A stretch of DNA of 15,790 nt from Candidatus Eiseniibacteriota bacterium (GTDB lineage Bacteria; ARS69), in the NCBI GenBank assembly GCA_052390515.1, contig JBQTGV010000186.1:1-15790 (forward strand). The letters run 5' to 3'. Position numbers and translations under genes: made by a program. The notes under the pieces are model-generated. The model saw nothing but the letters and a program-made list of their open reading frames with translations. It had not been told where the DNA came from and searched no databases. Shown here piece after piece: positions 280 to 15,790 of the stretch (its first letter is position 1; each line of letters starts with the position of its first letter).

Positions 280-1047
280 ATGACTCTCGAGGGACGGAAC
301 GCGGTCGTCACCGGCGGCGGCAGCGGCATCGGCGCGGCATGTGCGAGCGCGCTGGCCGCGGAGGGCGCACGCGTCCTGGTGTGCGCGCGGACGCGGGAGA
401 GCGTGGAGCGCGTGGCGGCGGCGATCGGCGGGAAGGCGACGGCCACCCCGTGCGACGTGACCGATCCGGAGAGCGTGCGGGCCATGGCGCGCGTCGCGGC
501 GGAGCGGCTGGGACGCGTGGACATCCTGATCAACAACGCCGGCGCGGGTCACAGCGCGCCGCTGGTCAAGGAGACGCTGGACGACTGGAACCGCATGCTC
601 GCGGTGAACGCGACGAGCGCGTTCCTGTGCACGCGGGAGTTCCTGCCGCGCATGATCGAGGCCGGGTGGGGCCGCGTGGTGAACGTGGCGTCGGTCGCCG
701 GGCTCAGCGGCGCGCGCTACATCGCCTCGTACGCGGCGGCGAAGCACGCCGTGATCGGGCTCACCCGATGCGCGGCGGCGGAGGCGGCCGCCTCCGGCGT
801 CACGGTGAACGCGGTCTGTCCGGGATACGTGGACACCCCGATGACGGAGGCATCCCTGGCGCGGATCATGCAGAGGTCCGGGCTGTCCCGCGAGCAGGCG
901 GGCGCCGCCATCCTCGAGAAGATGCCGCAGGGCCGCCTCGTCACCGCGGAGGAGGTCGCGTGCCAGGTGGTCTCCCTGTGCCGGGAGGGGAGCCGCGGCA
1001 TCAACGGGCAGTGCGTCGTGATCGACGGCGGGGGGTTGCTCTCGTGA
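280..1047 (+). CDS. SDR family NAD(P)-dependent oxidoreductase (3-hydroxyacyl-CoA dehydrogenase-like member of abm cluster)
   Basis: 255 aa; TGGGSGIG, NNAG, catalytic YAAAK, VNAVCPGYVDT and a C-terminal DGG. Confidence 0.93.
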   Translation: MTLEGRNAVVTGGGSGIGAACASALAAEGARVLVCARTRESVERVAAAIGGKATATPCDVTDPESVRAMARVAAERLGRVDILINNAGAGHSAPLVKETLDDWNRMLAVNATSAFLCTREFLPRMIEAGWGRVVNVASVAGLSGARYIASYAAAKHAVIGLTRCAAAEAAASGVTVNAVCPGYVDTPMTEASLARIMQRSGLSREQAGAAILEKMPQGRLVTAEEVACQVVSLCREGSRGINGQCVVIDGGGLLS

Positions 1048-1090
1048 GCGAGGCCGTCGTCGGCTGCCCTTTCCGGGCGGAGCGCTAGCC

Positions 1091-1483
1091 GTGTGGGACG
1101 CGGTGAACCCGCCGTCGCTCCCGGAGCCGCGCGGCTTCGCCCACGGGATGCTCTCCCTCGAGGGTGGCCGCCTGCTGCTCGTCGCCGGGCAGACCGCGGC
1201 GGTCGGCGACCGTGCGACCGGCGACTTCGCCGCGCAGTTCGCGGCGGCGCTCGACCGTGTCCTCGTGGTCGTGCGAGCGGTCGGCGGCGGGCCGGAGCAC
1301 GTCGGCCGCCTCACCGTGTACGTGACCGACCTCGCGCGGTACCGGGCCTGCCGCCGCGAGCTCGGCACGGTGTGGCGCGAGCGCTTCGGGACGCACTATC
1401 CGGCGATGGCGCTCGTCGAGGTGAAGGCATTGCTCGACGAGGGCACGCTCGTCGAGATGGAAGCCACGGCGGTCGTTCCCTGA
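1091..1483 (+). CDS. Rid (YjgF/YER057c/UK114) family protein, Arg-less type
   Basis: 130 aa from GTG with GGAG about 9 nt upstream; PRGFAHG, VAGQ, YPAMALVEV and LVEMEATA motifs. Confidence 0.9.
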   Translation: MWDAVNPPSLPEPRGFAHGMLSLEGGRLLLVAGQTAAVGDRATGDFAAQFAAALDRVLVVVRAVGGGPEHVGRLTVYVTDLARYRACRRELGTVWRERFGTHYPAMALVEVKALLDEGTLVEMEATAVVP

Positions 1484-1489
1484 GAGGAG
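1483..1489 (+). promoter_or_regulatory. Shine-Dalgarno sequence of the crotonase gene
   Basis: AGAGGAG lies 5 nt before the ATG at 1495. Confidence 0.75.
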
Positions 1490-1494
1490 ACACC

Positions 1495-2292
1495 ATGCGG
1501 TCCCCCAAGTCCTTCCTCTACGAGCACGACCGGGCGAGCTCGGTGGTCACCCTCACGCTGAATCGGCCGGAGCGGCTCAACGCGCTCACCTTCGAGGTGT
1601 ACGCGGAGCTGCGTGACACCTTCGACGCGCTGGGAGACGAGGACGGCGTTCGCGCCGTGGTGCTGACCGGCGCGGGGCGCGCGTTCTGCTCCGGAGGCGA
1701 CGTCGAGGACATCATCGGCGCGCTGCTCGGCCGGCGGTTCGAAGCCCTGCACGACTTCACGATGCTCACCTGCGACCTGATCCTCTCGATCCGCGCCTGC
1801 CCGCGCCCGGTCGTCGCGGCGCTCAACGGCACGGTGGCCGGGGCCGGCGCCGTCGTCGCCTCGGCCTGCGATTTCCGCATCGCGGCGGAGTCGGCGAAGA
1901 TCGCGTTCCTGTTTCCGCGCGTCGGGCTCTCCGGCGCGGACATGGGCGCGTGCTGGCTGCTGCCGCGCCTCGTCGGGCTCGGCCACGCGACCGAGCTCTT
2001 GATGACCGGGGACTTCGTCGACGCGCGGCGCGCGGAGCGCATCGGGCTCTACACCCGCGTCGTCGCCGACGGAGAGGCCCTGCGCGAGGCACGCGCTCTG
2101 GCGGAGAAGCTCGCGCGGGGACCGGCCGCGGCGACCGCCGTCACCAAGGACATGCTGAATCGCGAGGCGTCGATGTCGCTGGAGAGCGCGCTCGGTGCGG
2201 AGGCGCGCGTGCAGGCCGCCCTCATGCAGGGGCCGGACTTCCAGGAAGCGTTCGAGGCGTTCCGGGCGAAGCGAGAGGCGAGGTTCCGCTGA
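1495..2292 (+). CDS. Enoyl-CoA hydratase/isomerase (crotonase) family protein
   Basis: 265 aa from ATG 1495 (good RBS; the ORF track start at 1093 overlaps the Rid gene). Motifs [25 protein letters not shown] and A..IGL. Confidence 0.92.
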
Positions 2293-2294
2293 CC

Positions 2295-3440
2295 ATGCCC
2301 GATCCCGGAACGGTGCGGGCGTTCCTCGAGGAGCGGCACGTCCAGCTCGCCGCGCGCGTGACCGAGTGGGTGCGGACGGAGATCGCTCCGCTCCCCGAAC
2401 CGGCGGACGACGGCGAGGCTCGGGCGCAGGCGCGCTTCGTGCTCCATCTGCTGGGGTCCGCCGGCTGGCTCCGGCCGATCGAGGAGCGGGACGCACGCGC
2501 TTGCGGGCTGATCCGCGAGTCGCTGGCCGAAGCTTCGCCGCTCGCCGACGCGGTCTTCGCCCTGCAGGCGCTGGGGACGACGCCGCTGCTGCTCGCCGGC
2601 GCCGCCGGGCCGGCGAAGCGCTGGATCGACGCCGCGCTCGCCGGCGAAGCGATGGCGGCCTTCGCCATGACCGAGCCGGAGGCGGGCTCGGACGTGGCGG
2701 CCATGACGACGAGCGCACGGCTCGACGGCGACTCGTACGTGCTCGACGGCACGAAGACCCTGATCTCCAACGCCGGGCTCGCGGACTTCTACGTCGTGTT
2801 CGCCCAGTCCGAGCCGGCGAAGGGCAAGAAGGGCATCGTCGCGGTCGTCGTGCCGGCGGACTCACCGGGACTCCGCTTCGTGAAGGCGCAGATCCTGAGC
2901 GCGCCGCACCCGCTGGGGGAGATCGCATTCTCGGATTGCCGGGTTCCCGCCGCGAACCGCCTCGGCGGCGAGGGTGCGGGCCTGCGCATCGGGCTGGCGA
3001 CGCTCGACCGCCTGCGTGCCACGGTGGCTGCGTCGGCCTGCGGCATGGCCGGCCGCGCGCTCGACGAAGCCTGCGCCTGGGCGAAGGCCCGCCGCCAGTT
3101 CGGCAAGCTGCTCGCCGAGCACCAGCTCGTGCAGGCGAAGATCGCGCGGATGGCGACCGACCTCGCCGCGGCGCGGCTGCTCACCTACCACGCGCTCCGG
3201 GAGAAGGACCTGGGGGCGGAGCGCACCGGCATGGAGTCGGGGATGGCCAAGGCCTTCGCCACCGAGGCCGCGCAGCGCATCGTGGACGACGCTGTGCAGA
3301 TCCTCGGCGGGCGCGGCGTGCTCGCGGAGCATCCCGTGGAGCGCCTGTACCGTGCGGTGCGTGCGCTGCGCATCTACGAGGGCACGACCGAGATCCAGCA
3401 GCTGATCATCGCCGGGCACCTGCTGGCGGACGCGAGCTGA
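2295..3440 (+). CDS. Acyl-CoA dehydrogenase family protein
   Basis: 381 aa from ATG 2295, 2 nt after the upstream stop. Motifs [35 protein letters not shown] and IYEGTTEIQ (catalytic Glu). Confidence 0.94.
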
Positions 3441-3442
3441 CC

Positions 3443-5701
3443 GTGCGCATCGTCAGCGTCGGCGGCGGGCCCGCGGGCCTCTGGTTCGCCATCCTGATGA
3501 AGCGGGCGGATGCGCGGCACGAGGTGCTCGTGCTGGAGCGCAACCGGCCGGACGACACCTTCGGGTTCGGCGTCGTCTTCTCCGACGCGACGCTGACGAA
3601 CCTCGAGGCCGCCGATCCGCAGACGCTCGCAGCGATCCGGCGGAGCTTCTACCACTGGGACGACATCGACATCCACTTCGGCGGGCGCGTGCATTCGTCC
3701 ACCGGGCACGGCTTCGCCGGCATCTCCCGTCTCCGTCTGCTCCAGATCCTGGACGCGCGCTGCCGGGAGCTCGGCGTCGAGATCCGCTACGTGAACGAGG
3801 TCCGCGATCTTCGCGAGTACGAAGGCGCCGATCTGATCCTCGGCGCCGACGGCGTCAACAGCACCGTGCGAACGCTCCTCGCGGATCGTTTCCGGCCGAG
3901 CACCGACCTGCGGCCGAACCAGTTCGTGTGGCTGGGTACGACGCGGCCGTTTCCGGCGTTCACCTTCTATTTCAAGGCGAACGCGCACGGCCTATGGCGG
4001 GTGCACGCCTACCAGTACGAGGAGCGCGGGCTCTCCACGTTCATCGTGGAGACGACCGACGAGGCGTTCCGCGCGTCCGGGCTCGCCGTCGACGACGAGA
4101 GCGCGACGATCGCGTTCTGCGAGGAGCTCTGCCGGGAGGAGCTCGGCGGCCACCGCCTGCTGGGTAACCGCTCGGTCTGGCGGAACTTCCCGACGGTGAC
4201 GAACGAGGTCTGGAGCCACGGCAACGTCGTGCTGATCGGCGACGCCGCGCACACCGCGCACTTCTCGGTCGGCTCGGGAACGAAGCTGGCCATGGAGGAC
4301 GCGATCGCGCTGGCGGAGGCGCTCGGCAGCGAGCCCGACGTGGGGCGGGCGCTGCGCCGCTACGAAGAGCGGCGCCGGCCCGACGTGGAGAGCCTGCAAC
4401 GTGCCGCGCAGGCGTCCCTCGCCTGGTTCGAGAACACAGAGCGCTACGTCCGCTCCGAGCCGATCCAGTTCGGCTTCAACCTGCTGACCCGCAGCCTGCG
4501 CATCACCCACCAGGACCTTCGCGTCCGGGATCCGGCGTACGTCGACCGCGTGGACTCGTGGTTCGCGGCGAGGGCGGCGGAGCAGATCGGCGCTCCTGCG
4601 CCCGGCGGCGGGCCGATCCCGCCTCCGATGTTCACGCCGTTCCGCCTGCGCGGCCTGACGCTCGCGAACCGGGTCGTCGTGTCGGCCATGTGCCAGTACC
4701 GGGCCGAAGACGGAACGCCGAACGACTGGCACCTCGTGCACCTCGGCAGCCGCGCGGTCGGCGGGGCCGGCCTCGTCATGACGGAGATGACCGACGTGAG
4801 CGAGGACGCACGCATTTCCCCGGGGTGCACCGGCATGTACACGTCCGAGCACGTGGCCGCCTGGCGCCGCATCGTGGACTTCGTGCACGCCGAGAGCGGG
4901 GCGAAGATCGGAATCCAGCTCGGGCACGCCGGCCGCAAGGGCGCGACGAAGCTCGCCTGGGAGGGCGCGGACGAGCCGCTCCCGGACGGCGGCTGGCCGC
5001 TGCTGTCCGCGTCGGCGCTGGCTTGGCGCGAGGCGAACCGGATCCCCAAGGAGATGGATGCGGACGACATGCGCCGCGTGACGCGGGACTTCGTGCAAGC
5101 CGCGCGCATGTCCGTGGACGCGGGATTCGATCTGTTGGAGATCCACTTCGCCCACGGCTACCTGCTGGCCGGCTTCGTCTCCCCGCTCACCAACCTACGG
5201 CGGGACGAGTACGGCGGGACGCTCTCGAACCGCCTGCGCTTCCCGCTGGAGGTGCTGGACGCGGTGCGGGCCGCGTGGCCGGCCGGGAAGCCGGTCTCGG
5301 TGCGCATCTCCGCGGTGGACTGGGCGCCCGGTGGAACGACGCCCGACGATGCGGTGGAGATCGCCCGGATGCTGAAGGAGCACGGCTGCGATCTGGTCGA
5401 CGTCTCCGCGGGCCAGACCGTACCGCACCAGAAGCCTCGCTACGGGCGGCAGTTCCAGACGCCCTTCGCCGACCGCATCCGGCACGAGGCCGGCGTGGCC
5501 ACGATGGCGGTCGGCAACATCTCCTCGTACATGGACGTGAACACGATCCTCGCGGCGGGGCGCGCGGACCTGTGCGCGCTGGCGCGCGCGCACCTGTGGG
5601 ATCCGTACTGGACGCGGAACGCCGCGCAGAAGCTGGGTTGGCCGCTGGCGTGGCCGGCTCCCTACACGAGTTTGGCGAACTACACGCCGCGGTTCGAGTA
5701 G
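3443..5701 (+). CDS. abmA: Bifunctional anthraniloyl-CoA (2-aminobenzoyl-CoA) monooxygenase/reductase, salicylyl-CoA 5-hydroxylase family
   Basis: 752 aa from GTG 3443. N-terminal FAD monooxygenase domain ([44 protein letters not shown]) is fused to an Old Yellow Enzyme domain ([36 protein letters not shown]). Neighbouring genes match the Azoarcus evansii abm cluster set. Confidence 0.9.
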
Positions 5702-6987
5702 ACCGACTCGGCCAGGGACTCCACGCGCGGCGCGTCCGCGAGCAGCGCGGCGCAACGCTCGCGCACGCCGTCGAGCTTCACGCGGCTCAGGAACGCGGAG
5801 TAGGCGAGGTAGGCCAACATCCAGCGCAGGTCCTTCGCCCAGGGGGGGAGGAAGAGCGGCGGGCAGCACAGCCCCTCGGCCGCGAGCAGGCACAGCGCCG
5901 GCAGGTCCTCGAGGTCCAGCTTCCCGCAGAACAGGAGGCGAAGGCAGTCGGCCCGGCCCTGCACGACGACGGCGCGCAGGAAGTTGTGCACGCGCAGCAG
6001 GCCGTCGAGGTACACGACGTCCTTCGTGAAGGGAGCGCCGCCCTCCAGCACCCCGCCGCGGAACACGCGCCGTGCGCTCTCGAAGGCCTGGGCAGGCTCG
6101 GCGCCGCGGTCCTGGAAGAAGCGGAACAATTCGAGGAAGTTCGCGCCCTCGGCGGCCATCTGGATCGCGCGGACGCGACCGGCGAGCCGCGAGAGGCGGT
6201 CCAGGTCCATCGAGCCGCTCACGAACTCGGCGAAGACGGCGAGTCCCTCCTGCGTGCGCGTCGTCCCGGCGTGACCGGCGGCGAGGATGGGCAGGTCGAG
6301 CTGCGCGCGCCCGTTGAGCGACGTGCCGACGTGCACGTACGCCTCGTGGTGGATGAGCTGGTCGACGTCCTTGTCGGTGAAGCTCGCGGTGCGGCGGATG
6401 CGGATCGCGCGGGGGCCGGCGAGCGCGTTGGCCGACAGCTCGTCGACCAGGACCACGTCCGGCGCGAGCGGGCCGAAGTGCGCGACGACGGCCTCGCGCA
6501 TGCGCTCCGCCACGGCCGAAGCGAGATGGCAGGCCGCGGGCGGCGCGCCGAGATCCAGCCCGTCGAGCCCGGCCAGGACCTCTTCCAGCTGATCGGCCAG
6601 GGCGAGCGCGGTGGTGGACTCGCCGGCCAGCGCCTCGGCAGGCGTTCCGTAGAGGCTCCGCGAGCACGCGAAGAACTCCGGCGTTCCTGCGGCGGCCAGC
6701 ATGCGCGCGGACGTCTCGATCGCGTCGGCCTGCCGCGCGAGCCAGCGGTCCACCGGACCCTCGCCGCGGATCTCGCGGCGCGCCTCGGAGAGCGCGGCGA
6801 AGGTCGGGTCGACGTCGAACCGCGGATAGGTGACGACCGGGAGCCGCGTGCCCTGCGCGGCGAGGAAGCGCTCGCGCACGTCGTTGCCCCACGACAGGTA
6901 GGACAGGATCCGGACGGGACTCTCCGCACGGCGCAAGGCGAGTGCCACGCGGCGGATGCGGTCGCGCTCGGTCGGCGGGAAGGTCAC
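5680..6987 (-). CDS. DUF1704 / QEGLA-motif protein, MATCAP-like zinc metallocarboxypeptidase
   Basis: 435 aa from GTG (start uncertain, no clear RBS). HEAYVH (HExxxH, 6348-6331), TRTQEGLA (QEGLA 6252-6238), RVFRGG and [10 protein letters not shown]. Confidence 0.88.
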
Positions 6988-7017: not shown

Positions 7018-9201
7018 CTACGTCTTCGTTTCGACCCGAGCCGCGACCGACTTGAACGCCGGCGTCCGCGACCGCGGATCGACGTTCGCCGGGACGAGCA
7101 CGTTCGCCTCCGGGTAGTACATGGCGAGGCTGCCGGGGCGGATGTCCACGACCGCGACACGCACGCGTGCGCGCCCGGTCTCGGTCGCCACGGTCACGGG
7201 GTCGCCTTCGCTCAGGCCGAGCCGCCGCGCGTCGTCGCCCGACATCATGACCACGTCTCGGCGCTTGTTTCCACGGTAGAGATCCTCCTCTTCGTAGACG
7301 ACGGTGTTGAACTGTCCTTCGGACCGCAGCGTGGTGAGGCGGAACTCGCCGGGCGCGGGGGCGAAGTCCGGGAGCGGCGTGCGGTGGAAGCGGGCGCGTC
7401 CGTCGGGCGTGGCGAAGCGCGGCTCGTGGAACGTCCGTCCGGCGATGCAGAACTCGCCGCCGCCCGAGTCGATGCGCGCCATCGCCTCGAAGCCGGGAAC
7501 CGTCCGCGCGATCGCCCGGCGGAGTTCGCCGTGCGAGCGCAGAGCCGCCCAGTCGAAGCGACCCGGAGGCAGGATCCGCTCGGCCAGCCCGGCGATGATC
7601 TCGACCTCGGAACGCATCTCGCCCTGGGCCGGCCGCGCGCCGCCGGAGGAGAGCCGCACGAAGTTGAACATGGACTCCTGCGTCGTCGCCTCCTGCTCCT
7701 CGTCGCGGGCGAGCACCGGGACGATGACCGCGGCGCGTCCGCGGCCGTGGACGTGCCCGGCGTTCAGCTTCGTGGTCATCGAGAACGAGAACGGGATGCG
7801 GCGGAGCGCCCGGCTAGCCCAGACGGAGTCCGGGTTGCTGGCCCACAGGTTCCCGCCGAGGAGCACGGACGCGCGCACCCGCCCCCCGTCGGCCGCCAGC
7901 ATCGAGGCGAAGGTGTCGTCGCCGCCGCCCTCCGGGACACGGATGGCGAAGATCTCCTCCAGGCGCCGCGCGAACTCCGCGCGGAGCTTCGGCGTCACAC
8001 CGACGGAGCCGACGCCCTGCACGTTGGAGTGGCCGCGGATGGGAAGAAGACCGGCGCCGGGCCGACCGAGCCATCCGCGCGCCAGCGCGACGTTCGCCAG
8101 AGCGAGCACGTTGTCCACCCCGTGCCGGTGGTGGGTCAGGCCCATCGCCCAGGCGAGGATCCCCTTCCCGGCTCCGGCGATGCGGCGGACGGCGGCGTCC
8201 ACGGCGTCTCGCGGGACACCGGACCGGGCGACGAGATCGTCCCAGGAAGCTTCGAGCGCGTCGCGGCGGACCGCGTCGAAGCCCGCCGTGTGCGCGGCGA
8301 CGAACTTCTCGTCGACGGCGCCGGCCTCGATGACGCCCTTGAGCAGCGCATGGAACAGCGCGACGTCGCCTCCGACGTGCGGCTGCAGGTAGAGCTCGGC
8401 CACCTTCGAGCCGAAGAGGAGACTTCGCGGATCGGAAGGGACGCGGAAGCGCTGCAGCCCGAGCTCGCGCACGGGATTCACCACGATGACGGACCCGCCG
8501 CGCCGGCGGAGCCGCACCAGTTCGGTGATCAGCCTCGGGTGGTTGCTCGCGGGATTCGCCCCGGCGAGCAGCACGAGATCGGTCTTCGCCAGATCCTCGA
8601 GCACCAGGGACGCCGTGCCCGAACCGTAGACGTCGGCCAGCGCGACTCCGGAAGCGGCGTGGCAGTAGTACGAGCAGTTGTGGATGTGGCGGCAGCCCCA
8701 GGCCCGCGCCACGAGCTGCAAGAGGAACGCGGCCTCGTTGCTGGAGCGGCCGGAGGCGTAGAAGAAGGCCTCGTCCGGCGGCGTGTCGCGGAGCGCGGCG
8801 GCGGTGCGCTCCATCGCCTCGTCCCAGCCGATGCGGCGGAACCGGTCGTCGCCCTCGCCGGCCAACACCGGGAAGGCTAGGCGTCCCGCGCGCTCGAACT
8901 CCGCCGAGGTCATGCGCTCCATCGCGGCGATCGGCGTGGACGCGAACCAGGACTCGGTGACCGCGGCGGCCATGTCGCCGGCCTGTGCCTGCACCGACTT
9001 CTTGCAGACCTCGGGAAAGCGGCCGGCCTCGTTGGCCATGCCGCCACGCTCGCCGCCCATGCCGAGCGCGCACGTCTTGCACGCGTTGCGGGAGCGCAGC
9101 CTTCGCCAGAGCGGGAGCAGTCCGCCGGCTTCGCGTCCCTTCTGCAGGACATAGCGGATCGAGGCCAGCCCGCCGCCGGCGTCGACGCGGGGGTTGGCCA
9201 T
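7018..9201 (-). CDS. FdhF/YdeP family molybdopterin oxidoreductase (formate dehydrogenase alpha-like)
   Basis: 727 aa from ATG 9201 (the ORF extends to 9237, inside the palindromic element). Motifs CKTC...C, FYASGRSSNEAAF, NCSYYCH, GANPASNHPR, AMGLTHH, PIRGHSNVQG, RSEGQFNT, YYPEANVL and SRTPAFKS. Confidence 0.92.
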   Translation of the reverse strand: MANPRVDAGGGLASIRYVLQKGREAGGLLPLWRRLRSRNACKTCALGMGGERGGMANEAGRFPEVCKKSVQAQAGDMAAAVTESWFASTPIAAMERMTSAEFERAGRLAFPVLAGEGDDRFRRIGWDEAMERTAAALRDTPPDEAFFYASGRSSNEAAFLLQLVARAWGCRHIHNCSYYCHAASGVALADVYGSGTASLVLEDLAKTDLVLLAGANPASNHPRLITELVRLRRRGGSVIVVNPVRELGLQRFRVPSDPRSLLFGSKVAELYLQPHVGGDVALFHALLKGVIEAGAVDEKFVAAHTAGFDAVRRDALEASWDDLVARSGVPRDAVDAAVRRIAGAGKGILAWAMGLTHHRHGVDNVLALANVALARGWLGRPGAGLLPIRGHSNVQGVGSVGVTPKLRAEFARRLEEIFAIRVPEGGGDDTFASMLAADGGRVRASVLLGGNLWASNPDSVWASRALRRIPFSFSMTTKLNAGHVHGRGRAAVIVPVLARDEEQEATTQESMFNFVRLSSGGARPAQGEMRSEVEIIAGLAERILPPGRFDWAALRSHGELRRAIARTVPGFEAMARIDSGGGEFCIAGRTFHEPRFATPDGRARFHRTPLPDFAPAPGEFRLTTLRSEGQFNTVVYEEEDLYRGNKRRDVVMMSGDDARRLGLSEGDPVTVATETGRARVRVAVVDIRPGSLAMYYPEANVLVPANVDPRSRTPAFKSVAARVETKT

Positions 9202-9208
9202 TATGACA

Positions 9209-9376
9209 GCCTGACGCTTCGTCTCGGCGACGAGCATCGACGAGGGCCTCGCTCAACCTCGCTCGCCGTCCTGGCTCGCTCGGATCGACGACGCCGGCTT
9301 GCGCCGTCCGTGGCTTCAGCGCGGCGGCGACGACGCTCGGCCCTCGTCGCCGCTCTGCCGAGACGCGGCGCCAGGC
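9209..9376. repeat. Intergenic imperfect inverted repeat (REP/MITE-like or structured RNA) with two internal GGA-loop hairpins
   Basis: 9209-9248 pairs with 9339-9376, including perfect 9-bp (CGTCTCGGC) and 11-bp (CGACGAGGGCC) blocks. Internal hairpins on the - strand: GCC-AGGAC-GGC (9275-9265) and GCC-ACGGAC-GGC (9314-9303). Confidence 0.75.
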
Positions 9377-9382
9377 CGACGC

Positions 9383-10447
9383 TCAGCAAACCGCGGCAAC
9401 CGGGGCGTCCTCGTCGTGCACCGAGGCGAAGGCGCCGGAGACCCGCTCCTCTTCGAGGCGGTCGAAGTACTCGTCGGCGAGCGCGGTCGCCTCGCTCACC
9501 GAGGCGGAGTGGAAGATGCGCTCGCGCAGGCGCGCACCGTAGGGCAGGCCGCGCGTGAAGTAGCCCGTGGTCTTCTTGATGCGGCCGAGCGTCGCGCGTT
9601 CGAGGCGGGCCGCGTCGTCCGTCTCGACCGATCCCTCGAGCTGCCGGAAGTAGCCGAGCAGAACGGTGCGTCGTTCCGCGAGCGTCGGCTCGTGGACGGC
9701 ACGTCCGGCGAGCGCCTCGCCGATCTGGCGGATGAGCCACGGATTGCGCAAGATGCCGCGGCCCACCATCACGCCGTCCGCGCCGGACGCCTGCAGCGCG
9801 CGCCTCGCGTCGTCGACGGTCAGGATGTCGCCGTTGACCAGCACGGGGACGTCGACGGCGCGCTTCACCCGCCCGACGAACTCCCAGTCCGCACTTCCCG
9901 TGTAGAGATCGCAGCGGGTGCGGCCGTGCACCGTGATCATGCGCGCGCCCGCGCCCGCGGCGAGCTTCGCCACTTCCGGCGCGTTGCGGTTGGCCGCGTC
10001 CCAGCCGGTGCGCATCTTCACGGTGAAGGGCACGCGTCCCGCGGTCGCGCCGGCCACTGCGGCGAAGATGTCCCGCGCCCGGTCGGGCTCGCGCAGCAGC
10101 GCGGAGCCGGCGCACCCGGAAGTGACCTTCTTCGACGGGCAGCCCAGGTTGATGTCCACGACGTCGGCGCCCAGGTCGATGCAGCACCGGGCGGCGTCGC
10201 CCATGCGAACCGGATCCCGGCCGTAGATCTGGATGGAGACCGGATGCTCGTCGGGGTCGAGCTCGGCCATCTTCCATGCCCTGGCCACGTTGCGGGTCAT
10301 CGCCTCGGAGCTCACGAACTCGGTCACGGTGAGCCCGCAGCCGCCGAGACCCCGGATCAAGCGGCGGAAGCCACGGTCGGTGATGCCCTCCATGGGGGCG
10401 AGCACCGCCGGGGGATCGATGAGAACGGGGCCGATTCGGAAGCTCAT
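9383..10447 (-). CDS. dusB: tRNA-dihydrouridine synthase B
   Basis: 354 aa from ATG 10447. Motifs [55 protein letters not shown] and NPW. Confidence 0.92.
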
Positions 10448-10454
10448 GGGGGAC

Positions 10455-10460
10455 AGGGTA
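10455..10460 (-). promoter_or_regulatory. Putative -10 box of a leaderless dusB transcript
   Basis: TACCCT (TANNNT) lies 7 nt upstream of the ATG; no Shine-Dalgarno sequence is present. Confidence 0.5.
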
Positions 10461-10578
10461 CCCGCTGACCGAGCCGCTCGCCAGGGGCGGTCGGCGGTCG
10501 CCGTCCCCGCGGCCTCCACGCGGCCGTCGTCGGCCAGGACCGGCCGGCGGGCGCTCGGGCGGCCCCGGGGACGCCGGC

Positions 10579-11319
10579 TCAGCCGGCCGGCGCGGCGGCG
10601 GGCTTCGTCGCCACGATGCAGTGCGCGATTCCCCAGGTGAGACGCGTCGGGACGACCGGAGCGAAGCCGACCGAGGAGAGCAGATCGACGAACTCCGAGG
10701 GCGTGAGGAATCCCTTCGTGCTGTGTCGCAAGTACGTGTACGCGGACGGGCTGCGTGAGATCCAGCTCCCGATGCGGGGGAGGGCGTGATCGAGGTAGGC
10801 GGAGAGCACCGGAGTCTCCTTCCTCCGGAAGAACTCCACCACGACGAGCCTACCGCCGCCGGCGAGCAGCCGGTACGCCTCGCGGAGACCTTTCTCCGGA
10901 TCGGCGAAGTTGCGGACCCCGAAGCCCGCGGAGACGACGTCGAACGCCGCGTCCGGCTCGGGCACGCGCAGCGCGTCGCCTTCCCGGAAGCTGACGCGGC
11001 CGGCGAGTCCCTTCGCCGCCGCCTTCTCTCGGGCCAGCCGGATCATCTCCGGGCTCAGGTCCAGCCCCAGGACTTCGCCCCGGAAGCCCGCCGCGCGCGC
11101 GAACTCGAAAGCCAGGTCGCCGGTCCCGGTGGCGAGGTCGAGAATGCGCTTCGCCTCTTCGGGTCGCGCCGAACGGACCGCGGTCCGCCGCCACGAACGA
11201 TCGAGGCCGGCCGAAAGCACGTGGTTCAGCAGGTCGTAGCGCGGGGCGACCTGCGAGAACATGGAAGCGATCCGTTCCGGATCGCGTTCGAGCAGCAGCG
11301 GATCGAGGTATTGCTTCAC
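10579..11319 (-). CDS. ubiE: Ubiquinone/menaquinone biosynthesis C-methyltransferase (UbiE/MenG)
   Basis: 246 aa from GTG 11319. Motifs [45 protein letters not shown] and AYTYL..S. The longer track ORF runs antisense through the GcvT-like gene. Confidence 0.9.
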
Positions 11320-11328
11320 AGGCCGCCG

Positions 11329-11337
11329 AGTGTGCCA
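11329..11337 (-). promoter_or_regulatory. Possible extended -10 box of ubiE (near-leaderless)
   Basis: TGgCACACT ends 9 nt upstream of the GTG; no Shine-Dalgarno sequence is present. Confidence 0.3.
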
Positions 11338-11443
11338 GAGGCATCCGTCTCGGGGCAAGCGCGGCGTTCGGCGCGCGGCTGGTCGCGCGAACGAACCCGC
11401 GCAGACGCGGGGGCCGAGTCTTTCTCGGAAGCGGGACTTCGCG

Positions 11444-11449
11444 TAGCAT
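11444..11449 (+). promoter_or_regulatory. Putative -10 box of the (near-)leaderless GcvT-like operon transcript
   Basis: TAGCAT (TANNNT) lies 8 nt upstream of ATG 11458; no Shine-Dalgarno sequence at normal spacing. Confidence 0.5.
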
Positions 11450-11457
11450 GTCGCGCC

Positions 11458-12648
11458 ATGCCCGTGCCGAGCCCCTTTCACCCGCGCACCTCCCAGCTCT
11501 GCACGAGCTACCGCTGGAAGGACTGGGCCGGCTACGCCGCAGTCTGCGCGTACGACGTCTACCACGAGCGCGAGTACTTCGCGTTCCGCCACACCGCCGG
11601 CCTGATCGACGTGACCCCGCTCTTCAAGTACGAGGTGACCGGGAAGGACGCCGGGGCCTTCCTGTCGCGCGTGATGGTGCGGGACGCGGCGAAGATGAAG
11701 CGGGGTGTCGTGGCCTACTGCTGCTGGTGCGACGACGCGGGCAAGGTCATCGACGACGGGACCGTCTGGCGCCTGGGCGAGACGCACTACCGGGTGACTT
11801 CGGCGGAGCCCTCGCTCGCCTGGCTCGCGCGCAACGCGCGCGGCCTGGACGTGACCCTCGAGGACTCCACCGCGCGCATCGCCACGCTCTCCCTGCAGGG
11901 GCCGACCTCGCGCGAGATCCTGCGCCGCGCCTGCGACGCGCCGGTGGACGCGCTCAAGTACTTCCGGCTGGCGGAGGCGCGCTTCGACGGCTTCTCCGGC
12001 ACGGTCACGCGCACGGGCTACAGCGGTGACCTCGGCTACGAGATCTGGGTGGACGCGCGCGACGCCGTTCGCCTCTGGGACGTGCTGGCCGACGCCGGGA
12101 AGGACCTCGGGATGCAGCCCGCGGGGCTCGACGCGTACGACATGGTGCGCATCGAGGCGGGCTACGTGATGAACGGCGTGGACTACTACAGCGCGAACCA
12201 CTGCCTGATCGAGTCGCGCAAGTCCACGCCGTACGAGCTGGATCTCGGATGGACGGTGAAGCTGGACCGCGATGCGTTCAACGGACAGGCGGCGCTGCGC
12301 GCCGAGAAGCAGCGCGGGCCCTCGCGGTGCTTCGTGGGGCTCGAGGTGGACTGGGACGAGACGGAGCGGCTCTTCGCGGCTCTGGGGCTTCCACCGGAGA
12401 TCGCCAGCCGCGCCTGGCGCGACCCGCGGCCGGTCTACGACGCCGAGGGTCGCCAGGTCGGGCAGGCCACGAGCGGCAGCTGGTCGCCGCTGCTCAAGAA
12501 GAACCTCGCGCTCGCCACCGTGCGCGCTCCCTGGGCCGAGGTCGGCCGGGAGCTGCGCATGGAAGTCACCGTCGAGTACGTTCGCCGCTCCGTGAAGGCC
12601 ACCGTGAGGCAGAAGCCGTTCTTCGACCCCGAGCGAAAGAAGGCGTGA
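11458..12648 (+). CDS. Aminomethyltransferase (GcvT-like) folate-binding family protein, not canonical GcvT
   Basis: 396 aa. Motifs SPFHPR, GLIDVTPLFK (canonical GcvT has DVSHMG), GKVIDDG, LQGP, TRTGYSGDLGYEIW, RIEAG, TSGSWSP and PFFDP. Confidence 0.9.
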   Translation: MPVPSPFHPRTSQLCTSYRWKDWAGYAAVCAYDVYHEREYFAFRHTAGLIDVTPLFKYEVTGKDAGAFLSRVMVRDAAKMKRGVVAYCCWCDDAGKVIDDGTVWRLGETHYRVTSAEPSLAWLARNARGLDVTLEDSTARIATLSLQGPTSREILRRACDAPVDALKYFRLAEARFDGFSGTVTRTGYSGDLGYEIWVDARDAVRLWDVLADAGKDLGMQPAGLDAYDMVRIEAGYVMNGVDYYSANHCLIESRKSTPYELDLGWTVKLDRDAFNGQAALRAEKQRGPSRCFVGLEVDWDETERLFAALGLPPEIASRAWRDPRPVYDAEGRQVGQATSGSWSPLLKKNLALATVRAPWAEVGRELRMEVTVEYVRRSVKATVRQKPFFDPERKKA

Positions 12649-14231
12649 TGACCTGGGACGCGATCGTCGTCGGCGGCGGGCACAACGGGCTGGTCTGCGC
12701 CGCGTATCTCGCGAAGGCGGGGCGCAAGGTGCTCGTTCTCGAACGCCGGCACGTCCTGGGGGGTGCCGCCGTCTCCGAGGAGCTGCATCCCGGCTTCACG
12801 TTCTCGGTCTGCTCGTACGTGGTGAGCCTCTTCCGGCCGCACATCATCCGCGAGCTGGAGCTCACCCGGCACGGGATGGAGCTCATCCCCCTGGAATGCT
12901 CGTTCCTGCCGCTTCCCGGCGGGGACTCGCTCTGCCGCTGGGCGGACCCGCAGCGCACGCGCCGGGAGGTGTCGCGCTTCTCCGAGCGGGACGCGGAGAC
13001 GCTGTCGGAGTTCTCCCTGGCGATGACGCGTATGGCGCACTTCGCCAAGAACCTCATCGACGCGCCTGCGCCCGATCCCGCTTCACTCGACCCGCGGGAA
13101 CTGGCGAGGCTGCTTCGCCTGGGCCGGATGCTGGGGCAGCTCGATCCGGATCTCCGCTACCTCAATCTGCAGCTCGGCACGATGAGCGCCGTCGACTTTC
13201 TCGACCTGTGGTTCGAGTCCGACGTGCTGAAGGCGCCCATGTCGGTCAGCGGGATCATCGGGACGTTTCTCGGTGTGCGTTCGCCGGGCACGGCCTACGT
13301 GCTGCTGCACCACTACATGGGCGAGATCGACGGGGCGTTCCGTTCCTGGGGGTTCTCGAAAGGAGGCACCGGCCGGGTGAGCCAGGCCATCGCCTCGGCC
13401 GCGCGCGCCTTCGGCGCCGAGATCCGCACCGACGCGCCCGTGGCGCGCGCTCTGGTGAGGAACGGGACGGCGGAGGGCGTCGTGCTGCAGAACGGCGACG
13501 AGCTGCGCGCGAAGGTTGTGGTCTCGGCCCTCGACCCCCACCGCACGTTCTTCCGTCTCGTGGGCGAGGAGCATCTCGACCCGGAGTTCACGGCGAAGAT
13601 CCGACGATACAAGCTCCGCGGGAGCTCAGGCAAGGTGAACCTGGCCGTGGACCGCTTGCCGCGCTTCACCGGGAACCGCGAAGGCAACCATCATCTGCGC
13701 GGCGACATCGCCATAGCGCCGAGCATCGAGTACCTGGAGCGCGCCTACGACGACGCGAAGTACGGGGAGTTCTCGCGGCGGCCTTATATAAATGTGGTGA
13801 TCCCGTCGCTGCTGGACTCGACGGTCGCGCCGCCGGGGCAGCACGTCATCTCCTGTTTCGTGCAATACGCGCCGTATCGCCGGAACGGCGGCCCGGAGAC
13901 CTGGCCGGAGCACCGCGAGGAGTTCGGCGATACGGTCGTCGACACGCTCGCCGAGTACTGCCCGGGTCTGAAGGAGTCCATCCTGTTCCGGCAGGTGCTG
14001 ACCCCCTGGGATCTCGAGCAGGAATTCGGTCTCACCGAGGGGAACATCTTCCATGGGGAGCTCTCGCCGGAGCAGCTTCTCTTCCAGCGTCCCGCCGCGG
14101 GGTGGGCGCGGTACCGCACGCCGGTGCGCAATCTATGGATGTGCGCGAGCGGGACGCACCCGGGCGGCGGGGTCATGGGAGCGCCCGGCGAGCTGGCTGC
14201 GAAGACCATGCTGCGGAGGCGCGCACTGTGA
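12648..14231 (+). CDS. FAD-dependent oxidoreductase, phytoene dehydrogenase superfamily, PYROXD2-like (paralog 1)
   Basis: 527 aa; the ATG overlaps the upstream stop (TGATG). Motifs GGGHNGL, LGGA..EE..PGF.FS..SY..SL, YVLLHH.MG, GL..GNIFHG and SGTHPGGGVMG. Confidence 0.9.
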   Translation: MTWDAIVVGGGHNGLVCAAYLAKAGRKVLVLERRHVLGGAAVSEELHPGFTFSVCSYVVSLFRPHIIRELELTRHGMELIPLECSFLPLPGGDSLCRWADPQRTRREVSRFSERDAETLSEFSLAMTRMAHFAKNLIDAPAPDPASLDPRELARLLRLGRMLGQLDPDLRYLNLQLGTMSAVDFLDLWFESDVLKAPMSVSGIIGTFLGVRSPGTAYVLLHHYMGEIDGAFRSWGFSKGGTGRVSQAIASAARAFGAEIRTDAPVARALVRNGTAEGVVLQNGDELRAKVVVSALDPHRTFFRLVGEEHLDPEFTAKIRRYKLRGSSGKVNLAVDRLPRFTGNREGNHHLRGDIAIAPSIEYLERAYDDAKYGEFSRRPYINVVIPSLLDSTVAPPGQHVISCFVQYAPYRRNGGPETWPEHREEFGDTVVDTLAEYCPGLKESILFRQVLTPWDLEQEFGLTEGNIFHGELSPEQLLFQRPAAGWARYRTPVRNLWMCASGTHPGGGVMGAPGELAAKTMLRRRAL

Positions 14232-15766
14232 GCCGTCCCGACGTCCTCGTGATCGGCGCGGGCGTCAACGGGCTCGTCTGCGCGGCGTCGCTGGCGAAGG
14301 CCGGCCGGCGCGTCGTGCTGCTGGAGAGATCCGCTCACGCGGGTGGCCTCGCCGCGGGCGGCGAGTTCCATCCGGGATACCGTTCCGCGGGGATGCACCA
14401 TGACACGAGCGCTCTCCGCGGGGAGATCGTCCGCGCCCTGGAGCTCGAGAAACACGGGCTGGAGCTGGCTCCCGGTCCGGGTCCGGTACTCGTTCCCGAG
14501 CCGGACGGCCCCGGATTCCTCCTGCATCACGAAGCGGACGAGACGGCGAAGGACCTCGCGGGGCGCTCGGGTCGGGACGCCGAGGCCTTCGCCTCGTACC
14601 GCGCCTTCTTCGAGCGGATCCGGCCCTGGGCCGACCGCCTCTTCCGCGAGCCTCCGCCCGATCTGCTGGGCGGCGGCGACGGCACGCGCATCGCGCGGGA
14701 GGGCTGGGCGCTCCGCCGCCTCGGCGCCGACCTCATGCTGGAGCTCCTGCGCATCGGCCCGATGTGCGTCGCCGACTGGCTCGACGAGCGCTTCGCCTCG
14801 CCGCTCCTGAAGGGCGCGCTCGCCGTTCCGGCCGTGTCCGGCTCGTTCGTCGGGCCGTGGTCGCCGGGCACGCAGGCGAACCTCGTGCTGCACGAGTGCT
14901 CCGTGGCCCGCCCCCCGCGACGCGGGGCGCAGGCGCTGGTCGACGCTCTCGTGGCGGCGGCCCGCGCGTCCGGCGTCGAGCTGCGCTTCGGGGCGTGCGT
15001 CGAGCGCATCCGCGTCGGCGCCGGCGGCGTGGTGGGCGTGCTGCTGCGCGGGGGAGAGACGGTCGATGCGCGGATCGTGGCGGCGTCCTGCGACCCGAAG
15101 ACGGCGCTGCTGCGTCTCGTCGAGCCCGGACGCCTGCCGCTCCAGGCCGAGAGCCGCCTCGCCGCGTACCGCGCGAACGGAACGACGGCGAAGGTGAACC
15201 TCGCCCTCTCCGGCGAGCTCGGATTCGCCTCCCGTCCGGACCTTGCCGTCGAATCCGCGCGCATCGCCGGAACTCTCGACGACCTGGAGCGCGCCTTCGA
15301 TCCGATCAAGTACGGCCGCTTCGCGGAGTCCCCGGCGCTCGACGTGTGGGTGCCGACGCGGGCGAACCCCAGCTGGGCGCCGAACGGCCATCACGTCGTC
15401 TCCATCCTCGTGCACTTCGCGCCGCTCCGCCTCGAGGGCGGGTGGGACGACGCCTCCCGCCACCGCCTGGGGGACGCCGTCGTCTCCTCGCTCGCGCGGT
15501 ACGCGCCCGGGCTGCCGGGGCGCATCGTCGCCCGCGAGGTGCTCGCGCCGCCCGACATCGAGAGCCGCTGGGGTACCGCGGGCGGCCACGTCCACCACGG
15601 CGACCACACGCTCGATCAGCTCCTGATCCGCCCCGTTCCGGAGTGCGCGCGCTATGCGACGCCCATCCCCGGGCTGTTCCTCGCGGGGCGGGGGTCTCAC
15701 CCCGGCGTGGGCATGAGCGGGGCCCCCGGGGCCATCGCCGCCCGGGTCATGCTGGCCCGACGCTGA
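14228..15766 (+). CDS. FAD-dependent oxidoreductase, phytoene dehydrogenase superfamily, PYROXD2-like (divergent paralog 2)
   Basis: 512 aa; the GTG overlaps the upstream stop (GTGA). Motifs GAGVNGL, EFHPG, AKVNLAL, LERAFD..KYG, GGHVHHG and GSHPG.G..G.PG; colinear with paralog 1. Confidence 0.88.
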   Translation: MSRPDVLVIGAGVNGLVCAASLAKAGRRVVLLERSAHAGGLAAGGEFHPGYRSAGMHHDTSALRGEIVRALELEKHGLELAPGPGPVLVPEPDGPGFLLHHEADETAKDLAGRSGRDAEAFASYRAFFERIRPWADRLFREPPPDLLGGGDGTRIAREGWALRRLGADLMLELLRIGPMCVADWLDERFASPLLKGALAVPAVSGSFVGPWSPGTQANLVLHECSVARPPRRGAQALVDALVAAARASGVELRFGACVERIRVGAGGVVGVLLRGGETVDARIVAASCDPKTALLRLVEPGRLPLQAESRLAAYRANGTTAKVNLALSGELGFASRPDLAVESARIAGTLDDLERAFDPIKYGRFAESPALDVWVPTRANPSWAPNGHHVVSILVHFAPLRLEGGWDDASRHRLGDAVVSSLARYAPGLPGRIVAREVLAPPDIESRWGTAGGHVHHGDHTLDQLLIRPVPECARYATPIPGLFLAGRGSHPGVGMSGAPGAIAARVMLARR

Positions 15767-15790
15767 AACCAGATGTGGCAATCAGCTACA

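Follow-up and report, generated by a model that had tools for sequence, protein, structure and literature searches.

A conserved operon joining a GcvT-like folate protein to two PYROXD2-like flavoproteins as a candidate split N-demethylase

Contig JBQTGV010000186.1 of a Candidatus Eiseniibacteriota bacterium (assembly GCA_052390515.1; 4.27 Mb in 223 contigs, 95% complete) is 15,790 nucleotides (nt) long, has a G+C content of 72%, and was analysed here as a single window. At its 3' end, three genes follow one another on the plus strand. The first encodes a stand-alone folate-binding protein of the GcvT family, and the other two encode paralogous flavoproteins with flavin adenine dinucleotide (FAD), A and B, of which A resembles PYROXD2, an orphan mitochondrial flavoprotein of eukaryotes. 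The three genes and their products will be hereafter referred to as g1, g2 and g3. Here, we describe the gene structure, the families and the conservation of this trio. Based on these relationships, we propose that it would constitute one operon for a split, tetrahydrofolate (THF)-coupled flavoprotein oxidative N-demethylase, a reading that we consider somewhat probable.

Gene structure and protein families of the trio

Genes were called from a frame analysis of third-position G+C content (GC3) together with the translations, and GC3 separates three plus-strand reading frames in succession between 11.4 and 15.7 kb (Table 1). The junction between g1 and g2 reads GCGTGATGACC, where the A of the g1 stop codon TGA doubles as the A of the g2 ATG, and the junction between g2 and g3 reads ACTGTGAGCC, a GTGA with a 4-nt overlap. 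The TGATG and GTGA overlaps that a first-pass annotation of the window had described are read here exactly so. The g3 stop codon lies 24 nt from the contig end. The frame of g3 is open for 1,332 nt 5' of the g3 start and spans most of g2 (open reading frame (ORF) 12896-15766, plus strand). The same annotation had placed the genes behind a single putative promoter. A scan of positions 11200-15790 for the sigma-70 consensus gave 0 sites, and an Rfam scan of the window matched no family. Since neither an Rfam match nor a sigma-70 consensus lies before g1, this promoter is not supported; from the Rfam result, the window therefore contains no glycine or THF riboswitch. A terminator-like hairpin inside g2 (14060-14073, plus strand) is at chance level, with 1 found and 1.2 expected from shuffled sequences.

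Table 1 Features of the trio and of the region upstream of it.
Feature	Position	Strand	Remarks
g1, stand-alone GcvT-family folate-binding protein	11458..12648	+	396 amino acids (aa); P0001; PF01571 and PF08669
g2, PYROXD2-like FAD flavoprotein A	12645 (GTG) or 12648 (ATG)..14231	+	528 aa; P0002; PF01593
g3, paralogous FAD flavoprotein B	14228 (GTG)..15766	+	512 aa; P0003; PF01593
Shine-Dalgarno-like AAGAAGG	12637..12643	+	within the 3' end of g1, just before the g2 start; read from sequence
Shine-Dalgarno-like GGAGG	14215..14219	+	within the 3' end of g2, 9 nt before the g3 GTG; read from sequence
Divergent intergenic region, presumed promoter region	11320..11457		between the UbiE/MenG-type methyltransferase gene and g1
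UbiE/MenG-type methyltransferase gene	start probably GTG 11319 or TTG 11358	-	upstream of g1, divergent

The g1 protein matches GCV_T (PF01571) with 214.9 bits and the C-terminal barrel PF08669 with 54.2 bits in Pfam. Its start M1 and the N-terminus MP.PSPFHPRT are common to 22 aligned homologues, and the GcvT-family motifs DDG and RTGY.GD.GYE are retained. The g1 family is tight: the best 120 of 8000 scored matches are 63-95% identical and mostly exactly 396 aa long. Over its full length, g1 can be aligned to T proteins of solved structure, as well as to the GcvT-like portions of the trimethylamine N-oxide (TMAO) demethylase Tdm, of dimethylglycine oxidase and of sarcosine oxidase. The top NCBIfam match is the C-terminal half of Tdm (NF053776; 259.3 bits, cut-off 1100), in which residues 5-395 align with positions 388-760 of the 763 in the model; the full two-domain composition of Tdm is not found. 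The named matches that follow, GcvT, SoxA (164.9 bits) and DmdA (129.6 bits), are all below their cut-offs, as are those to LigM (84.8 bits) and DesA (71.2 bits). Every GcvT cut-off is missed, with 223.9 bits of the 300 of PRK00389, 171.3 of the 235.85 of TIGR00528 and 144.9 of the 459 of PRK13579. The one other GcvT-family match of the genome, 35% identical to g1, is located on contig C176 (18548-19546) and is directly followed by gcvH (19661-20014); g1 and this gene are the only GcvT-family matches in the 95%-complete genome. Because g1 scores below the GcvT cut-offs and the other GcvT gene sits beside gcvH, g1 can be described as an extra paralogue that is not part of glycine cleavage. As the first-pass annotation had observed, gcvH, gcvP and carotenoid genes are missing from the window: none was found with Pfam and NCBIfam among the 12 ORFs scanned.

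The g2 and g3 proteins, which are 37% identical to each other, match PF01593 with 60.1 and 68.0 bits, respectively, and both have N-terminal FAD Rossmann matches in Pfam. Their full-length matches are PF01593 and CrtO-type models. Matches to PF01266, the DAO-type family, span the N-terminal Rossmann stretch only (residues 5-51 and 5-68), and no DAO-type module is found in either protein. Of the trio, g2 is the most conserved member, while g3 evolves faster and has conserved motifs of its own. Across 57 orthologues of g3, the FAD motifs are retained, the YVLLHHYMGEIDGAF segment has given way to a 7-residue deletion, and GNIFHGE has become GGH.HHGEH. The AlphaFold 2 model of g2 has a predicted local distance difference test (pLDDT) value of 89.3 and a predicted template modelling score (pTM) of 0.89.

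Relation of the flavoproteins to PYROXD2 and to carotenoid enzymes

When all 1.84 billion cluster representatives were searched, 2,732 clusters had an E-value of at most 1e-30, and the best 150 of them include PYROXD2-named proteins of oyster, mayfly and flatworm, as well as a choanoflagellate protein. The identity to oyster PYROXD2 is 42% for g2 (539 aligned positions, 399 bits) and 32% for g3. Relatives of g2 and g3 from loci with the trio, hereafter clade 1, are referred to as A-type and B-type. A second clade, clade 2, which emerged when a long match was used as the query, consists of 529-aa flavoproteins that are 47% identical to g2, from sources labelled Longimicrobiales, Gemmatimonadota, Proteobacteria and Tara. 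Motifs were compared in 67 A-type, 57 B-type, 6 eukaryote and 7 clade-2 sequences. YVLLHH.MG, GNIFHG and HPGGGV.G, among the motifs that the first-pass annotation had named for PYROXD2, are present in g2 and in the oyster, mayfly and flatworm PYROXD2, and are common to A-type proteins and PYROXD2.

A quick IQ-TREE tree of 83 rows was made, with the Shimodaira-Hasegawa-like approximate likelihood ratio test (SH-aLRT) as its only support. The rows are 12 hand-picked A/B pairs, the pair of the window, 5 clade-2 proteins, 4 proteins of cultured alphaproteobacteria, 4 eukaryote PYROXD2, 2 fusions with a glutathione-dependent formaldehyde-activating (GFA) domain, the first 40 full-length representatives of the best 150 clusters, and 2 CrtI. 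The CrtI of Pantoea and Thermus are found on a long branch outside all 81 family members (SH-aLRT 100). One clade (SH-aLRT 99) is composed of the g2 orthologues, clade 2 and the A protein of Shinella, and every member with visible gene context shows linkage to a GcvT-like gene. The g3 orthologues form a separate, monophyletic and long-branched clade (SH-aLRT 100). The eukaryote PYROXD2 and the GFA fusions have a clade of their own (SH-aLRT 99), apart from the GcvT-linked one, in a tree whose backbone is without resolution. Because these clades are separate, g2 is a close relative of PYROXD2 and not its orthologue. The link to PYROXD2 that had been claimed from the motifs thus stands as full-length homology at 42% identity, but not as orthology, since PYROXD2 is a sister subfamily in the tree.

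In public annotation, flavoproteins of this kind are named 'phytoene dehydrogenase-like'. The cut-off of crtI_fam (TIGR02734), 238.1 bits, is not reached by g2 (120.9 bits) or by g3 (93.1 bits), and no protein of this genome passes it. True CrtI, from Pantoea and Thermus plasmids, are 23-25% identical to g2. No crt gene was found in the ORFs of the window or among the conserved gene clusters of 81 clade-1 loci. By the cut-off, identity and tree tests that were run, g2 and g3 do not appear to be carotenoid enzymes.

As far as the accessible text of two papers shows, genome-wide association studies (GWAS) tie PYROXD2 to methylated amines and not to lipids, with associations to N-methylpipecolate, trimethylamine, dimethylamine and N2-acetyl-N6,N6-dimethyllysine (PMC5780481, PMC13352909). 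The accessible part of the second, a 2026 paper on PYROXD2, gives its location and associations only (PMC13352909). Furthermore, the portion available of another report attributes a severe infantile mitochondrial disorder to PYROXD2 (PMC8777681).

Conservation, gene contexts and fusions

In a scan of one genome per species, 510 pattern matches were obtained, 500 of which encode a relative. The best 80 were kept; these are the closest relatives and not a random sample, and their start assignments are heuristic. They are labelled Planctomycetota, Acidobacteriota, Latescibacterota, Krumholzibacteriia, Eiseniibacteriota, Gammaproteobacteria (Woeseiaceae), Myxococcota, Bdellovibrionota, Gemmatimonadota, Zixiibacteriota, Dadabacteria and Caldithrix, so that in the best 80 of the 500 loci the trio spans about ten phyla. 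Where the g1-like gene is followed by 300 nt or more of sequence, a g2-like gene comes next in 77 of 77 loci (63-81% identity where complete), and where a complete g2-like gene has 300 nt or more behind it, a g3-like gene comes next in 66 of 67 loci (37-55% identity). This is the conservation that the first-pass annotation had asked for. The sole exception (L011) has 5,257 nt downstream without a g3-like gene, and the ORFs tried in this DNA match no family. Gaps of at most 50 nt are seen at 70 of 76 g1-g2 junctions and at 64 of 66 g2-g3 junctions, mostly as overlaps of 1 or 4 nt. Two loci of Krumholzibacteriia have inserts of 749 nt (L014, 7760-8511) and 649 nt (L017, 9189-9840) between the g1-like and g2-like genes; the ORFs tried in them match no NCBIfam family. 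In the small phylum to which this assembly belongs, the trio is present in 7 of 12 genomes.

When all ORFs of the 81 loci were clustered, no gene cluster outside the trio was found in more than 8 loci, and the remaining large clusters consist of ORFs antisense to the flavoprotein genes. Since no cluster beyond the trio is common to more than 8 of the 81 loci, the module can be considered self-contained. The UbiE-type neighbour is not conserved beyond this lineage. Upstream of the trio, one relative (L190, genome G003) has DusB and a molybdopterin oxidoreductase, and another (L189, genome G009) has, within the stretch fetched, only DusB; in both, a class II ribonucleotide reductase gene follows g3. 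The DusB and molybdopterin oxidoreductase neighbours are lineage synteny on the other strand and not parts of the module.

Clade 2 was sampled in 79 metagenome loci (L095-L173). A GcvT-like gene, 39% identical to g1, lies directly upstream of the flavoprotein gene in 73 of the 74 loci with upstream DNA, and a second flavoprotein is found in 0 of the 64 loci with enough flank. Because clade 2 has no second flavoprotein, the conserved core is the pair of GcvT-like protein and flavoprotein, and g3 is an addition of clade 1. Clustering of the ORFs of the 79 loci shows nothing widespread beyond the pair. Marine metagenome contigs commonly carry this pair-only module, and the G+C content of the DNA is 45-72%. 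Some clade-2 loci also have a GbcA-like Rieske oxygenase or generic sulfatases; the neighbouring sulfatases, which fall below the choline-sulfatase cut-off, were rejected as a substrate clue, and so were DUF971, Ham1 and RNase PH, which are upstream in 15 loci and look like single-lineage synteny.

Another gene order is found in a cultured Shinella. In Shinella sp. PSBB067 the order is flavoprotein A (51% identical to g2), flavoprotein B and GcvT-like gene, and the gene for B has a frame break near locus position 9450, due to either a pseudogene or a sequencing error. This locus corresponds to NZ_CP069303.1 1852104-1867663 (L183), in a record that is labelled a 4.6-Mb 'plasmid' and has, in the copy analysed, 2 annotated features only. 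The link between GcvT-like protein and flavoprotein, first proposed from the window, is thereby seen again in a divergent second clade and under a different gene order. A plasmid of Shinella sumterensis has a flavoprotein (43%) and an annotated gcvT within one cluster, together with a LysR regulator, an enoyl-CoA hydratase, an ADP-forming acyl-CoA ligase, a 3-hydroxyacyl-CoA-dehydrogenase-type protein, a class II aldolase, a BKACE protein and ABC transport genes that include a binding protein; by its gene content, this cluster looks catabolic. The homologue of Roseovarius (35%) has no GcvT neighbour and lies beside BKACE, aldehyde dehydrogenase and choline dehydrogenase genes, and that of Sphingobium has neither a GcvT neighbour nor a context of the Roseovarius type. 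Rieske oxygenases whose best match is the glycine-betaine monooxygenase GbcA (150-229 bits, below the cut-off of 670) occur in 4 of 81 clade-1 and 7 of 79 clade-2 loci, and in five clade-2 loci the Rieske oxygenase gene is 0-31 nt downstream on the same strand. These contexts are a minority, and none is in this window. Taken together, the contexts seen elsewhere point to betaine- or carnitine-type amines, or to what their breakdown yields, as candidate substrates.

A search for longer proteins gave 26 matches. Five apparent double flavoproteins (P0316-P0320) and one GcvT-flavoprotein join (P0322) have Arg-rich, out-of-frame middles and were rejected as frameshift read-throughs; P0315 is an odd direct join. 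The false double flavoproteins arise because the g3 frame is open far upstream, so that one indel fuses the genes. P0341 (957 aa) is a single case of a GcvT-linker-flavoprotein protein that is apparently in frame. In P0184 and P0330, a GFA domain (PF04828; 59.7 and 51.8 bits) is joined by a linker to a PYROXD2-like flavoprotein. These two proteins are 59% identical over 782 aligned positions, and in the tree they are placed together with the choanoflagellate protein, within the clade of eukaryote PYROXD2; they are genuine fusions that support each other. The flavoprotein family is thus partnered with a folate-based one-carbon (C1) catcher in bacteria and with a formaldehyde-activating-family domain in probable protists, and this dual partnership is the strongest indirect argument that the family would release carbon at the formaldehyde level.

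The remainder of the window has other genes. On the minus strand upstream of g1, the UbiE/MenG-type gene is followed by DusB and an FdhF/YdeP-type molybdopterin oxidoreductase (together at 7018-10519) and by a member of the MATCAP/QEGLA family (5680-6987; PF08014, 411 bits), whose animal members are named for microtubule tyrosine carboxypeptidase. An acyl-CoA gene run occupies positions 280-5701 of the plus strand. It encodes a short-chain dehydrogenase/reductase that resembles 3-hydroxybutyrate dehydrogenase, a RidA-family protein, an enoyl-CoA hydratase (NF006107, 359.8 bits, above the cut-off of 330), an acyl-CoA dehydrogenase and a bifunctional salicylyl-CoA 5-hydroxylase/old yellow enzyme (OYE) oxidoreductase (NF006101, 1133 bits, above the cut-off of 1078), and it looks like an aromatic-acid CoA catabolic operon.

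A candidate split N-demethylase and its rivals

In the scheme that we infer, for the oxidation itself as for the C1 transfer to THF, the complex, the substrate and the electron acceptor, g2 would oxidise the N-methyl C-H of a tertiary or secondary amine to an iminium, the reaction known from its superfamily, the amine oxidases. The g1 protein would load the one-carbon unit onto THF and give 5,10-methylene-THF, with no free formaldehyde escaping. Capture of C1 on THF is likewise the role of the GcvT-like domain in dimethylglycine oxidase, in sarcosine oxidase and in TMAO demethylase. The g3 protein could act as another oxidase that takes on the following demethylation, or it could be a subunit that pairs with g2. 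Flavin oxidases cannot attack quaternary amines. Rieske enzymes would take the first methyl off quaternary amines, and the A and B flavoproteins could then handle the tertiary and secondary amines, in parallel to the known path from GbcAB to dimethylglycine dehydrogenase to sarcosine oxidase. The first-pass annotation had already read the trio as an N-demethylase. The conservation of the trio, the link to GcvT, the distance from CrtI and the homology to PYROXD2 favour that reading, whereas its expected neighbours and the orthology to PYROXD2 were not found.

Association of g1 with g2 was modelled with FAD present. Three runs scored 0.64, 0.39 and 0.49 (median 0.49), and of 3 controls the best scored 0.00; at least 64% of contacts are common to the runs, with a partner pLDDT of 90 or more. 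In the calibration, 116 of 157 solved complexes and 2 of 215 mismatched pairs attained the mark, and scores of at most 0.60 comprise 18 of the 157 solved complexes and both passing mismatches; the g1-g2 job, with its own alignments and a riding FAD, is unlike the calibration set. The prediction gives a weak hint that g1 and g2 may associate physically.

The proposal can be compared with known systems. Dimethylglycine oxidase, dimethylglycine dehydrogenase, sarcosine dehydrogenase and heterotetrameric sarcosine oxidase likewise combine amine oxidation by an FAD module with a GcvT-like folate module in which C1 is trapped as 5,10-methylene-THF, and g1 matches the GcvT-like parts of PDB entries 1pj5, 4pab and 2gag over its full length (104.3, 75.6 and 102.1 bits). 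However, the flavin module of these four enzymes is DAO-type (PF01266), while that of the trio is CrtO/PYROXD2-type, in the PF01593 superfamily. Moreover, the trio consists of separate proteins with two paralogous flavoproteins and has no delta or gamma subunits. In Tdm (NF053776; PDB-id 9q5a), the domain that passes formaldehyde to THF is the best-scoring named relative of g1, but the catalytic N-terminal half of Tdm is missing from g1 and Tdm is not a flavoenzyme. Eukaryote PYROXD2 is a full-length homologue of g2, with motifs in common and in one family far from CrtI; it differs in having its own clade and, in animals, no adjacent GcvT-like partner. CrtO and CrtI have the same fold and FAD-binding architecture as g2 and g3, which differ from them in their sub-cut-off scores, in the lack of surrounding carotenoid genes and in the linkage to a folate protein instead. 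LSD1/KDM1A, an amine-oxidase-superfamily flavoprotein, also removes N-methyl groups as formaldehyde, but it is a distant relative that acts on histone lysines, with a SWIRM/Tower architecture and no GcvT partner. LSD1 has been reported to bind folate.

Several observations weigh against the N-demethylase proposal. The top named model of both flavoproteins, over their full length, is CrtO (NF045689; 306.1 bits for g2 and 251.8 bits for g3, cut-off 1000), and the tree has no CrtO row; the separation from carotenoid enzymes on which the first-pass annotation had depended holds for CrtI, which is distant in the tree, and for CrtO by cut-off only. In Foldseek, the top match of the g2 model is the gamma-carotene desaturase 4rep (template modelling (TM) scores 0.76/0.82), then CrtI 4dgk. 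Nicotine, 6-hydroxynicotine, monoamine, cyclohexylamine and putrescine oxidases come after the desaturases, with TM scores of about 0.5-0.6, and because the fold fits carotenoid desaturases and amine oxidases alike, the structure search decides between no readings. Elsewhere in the genome there is one gene of the squalene/phytoene-synthase family (SQS_PSY). The transporters, folD and purU expected by the first-pass annotation are not among the genes conserved with the trio in the clustering of ORFs from the 81 loci, and no regulator is either. With no conserved partners and with DusB, the molybdopterin oxidoreductase and the class II ribonucleotide reductase as housekeeping neighbours, the window gives no substrate clue. 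Flavoprotein members at 35-41% identity, in Sphingobium and Roseovarius, have no GcvT neighbour. The g1-g2 complex score stands above its controls but falls in the weak band, which answers the earlier suggestion of a complex in part only. Finally, most of the database fusions are frameshift read-throughs, and the catalytic role of the GFA family (PF04828) is disputed.

The rival that survives best holds that g1 alone is a non-oxidative methyltransferase of the DmdA/LigM/DesA type that yields 5-methyl-THF, with the flavoproteins doing neighbouring redox steps, in one pathway and not in one enzyme. Stand-alone GcvT-family demethylases are established, PDB entries 3tfh and 5x1i are among the structure matches of g1, and the sub-cut-off matches to DmdA, LigM and DesA and the weak complex score fit this explanation. 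We nevertheless consider it unlikely. The scores of g1 against the formaldehyde-capturing domains of Tdm and SoxA are far higher, the GFA fusions tie the flavoprotein family to C1 at the formaldehyde level, and the genes are almost always adjacent across phyla, with overlaps of 1-4 nt and one apparently in-frame fusion, which suggests a tighter coupling.

A reverse flow of C1 is less plausible still. Here g1 would hold 5,10-methylene-THF, and the flavoproteins would reductively methylate or aminomethylate a substrate via FAD, as in TrmFO, ThyX and MnmE-MnmG. MnmE has a GcvT-like folate-binding domain and its partner, MnmG, is an FAD protein. The position of the trio among housekeeping genes, near DusB and a UbiE-type methyltransferase, would agree with such a role, but this UbiE neighbour is not conserved outside the lineage, and g2 and g3 belong to the amine-oxidase/CrtI superfamily and not to the GidA, TrmFO or ThyX folds. 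Moreover, in cultured bacteria the flavoprotein genes lie in catabolic surroundings, with ABC transporters, BKACE, choline dehydrogenase and aldehyde dehydrogenase, and the GFA fusions point to a release of formaldehyde.

That g2 and g3 are carotenoid or isoprenoid desaturases or ketolases of the CrtO/CrtI type beside an unrelated GcvT-like gene, as their top named model, their nearest solved structures, the SQS_PSY gene and their public name would have it, is very improbable, because the scores are about one third or less of the CrtO cut-off and about one half or less of that of crtI_fam, CrtI is distant in identity and in the tree, neither the window nor the conserved clusters of the 81 loci include a crt gene, the GcvT linkage in three clades and two gene orders would be left unexplained, and animal PYROXD2 is tied by GWAS, in the text available, to methylated amines and not to lipids (PMC5780481, PMC13352909). 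The probability that is left over after the N-demethylase proposal and these three rivals goes to some other explanation.

A broader extension of the N-demethylase proposal, which we put forward tentatively as rather less than an even chance, is that the whole PYROXD2 family, the human protein included, could be formaldehyde-releasing oxidative N-demethylases of tertiary and secondary methylamines. The C1 catcher, by which cells would detoxify the released carbon, would be a GcvT-like folate protein in bacteria or a GFA domain in protists. In the trio, both paralogues would demethylate in succession and pass the carbon to a single folate subunit, and this would amount to a third architecture, of independent origin, for a folate-coupled amine demethylase. 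Candidate substrates suggested by this extension are dimethyl- and monomethyl-amino acids left by Rieske enzymes, N6,N6-dimethyllysine, N-methylpipecolate and dimethylamine.

Folate-coupled flavin demethylation is of a known kind; what we would rate as new here is the different flavoprotein scaffold, split into subunits. In the literature searched, which covers main texts and few subscription journals, no description of the module or of the PYROXD2 reaction was found. PYROXD2 is among the strongest and most replicated human metabolite GWAS loci, and a bacterial relative that is nearly always paired with a folate-dependent C1 catcher provides a concrete and cheap biochemical hypothesis, together with a tractable expression system. 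The carriers of the module are sediment and ocean bacteria of about ten phyla, in which its proteins currently carry the names 'phytoene dehydrogenase' and 'glycine cleavage T protein'. If the proposal is true, methylated-amine turnover and C1 supply would have, in this module, a route that has gone unrecognised, and PYROXD2 would gain a testable function.

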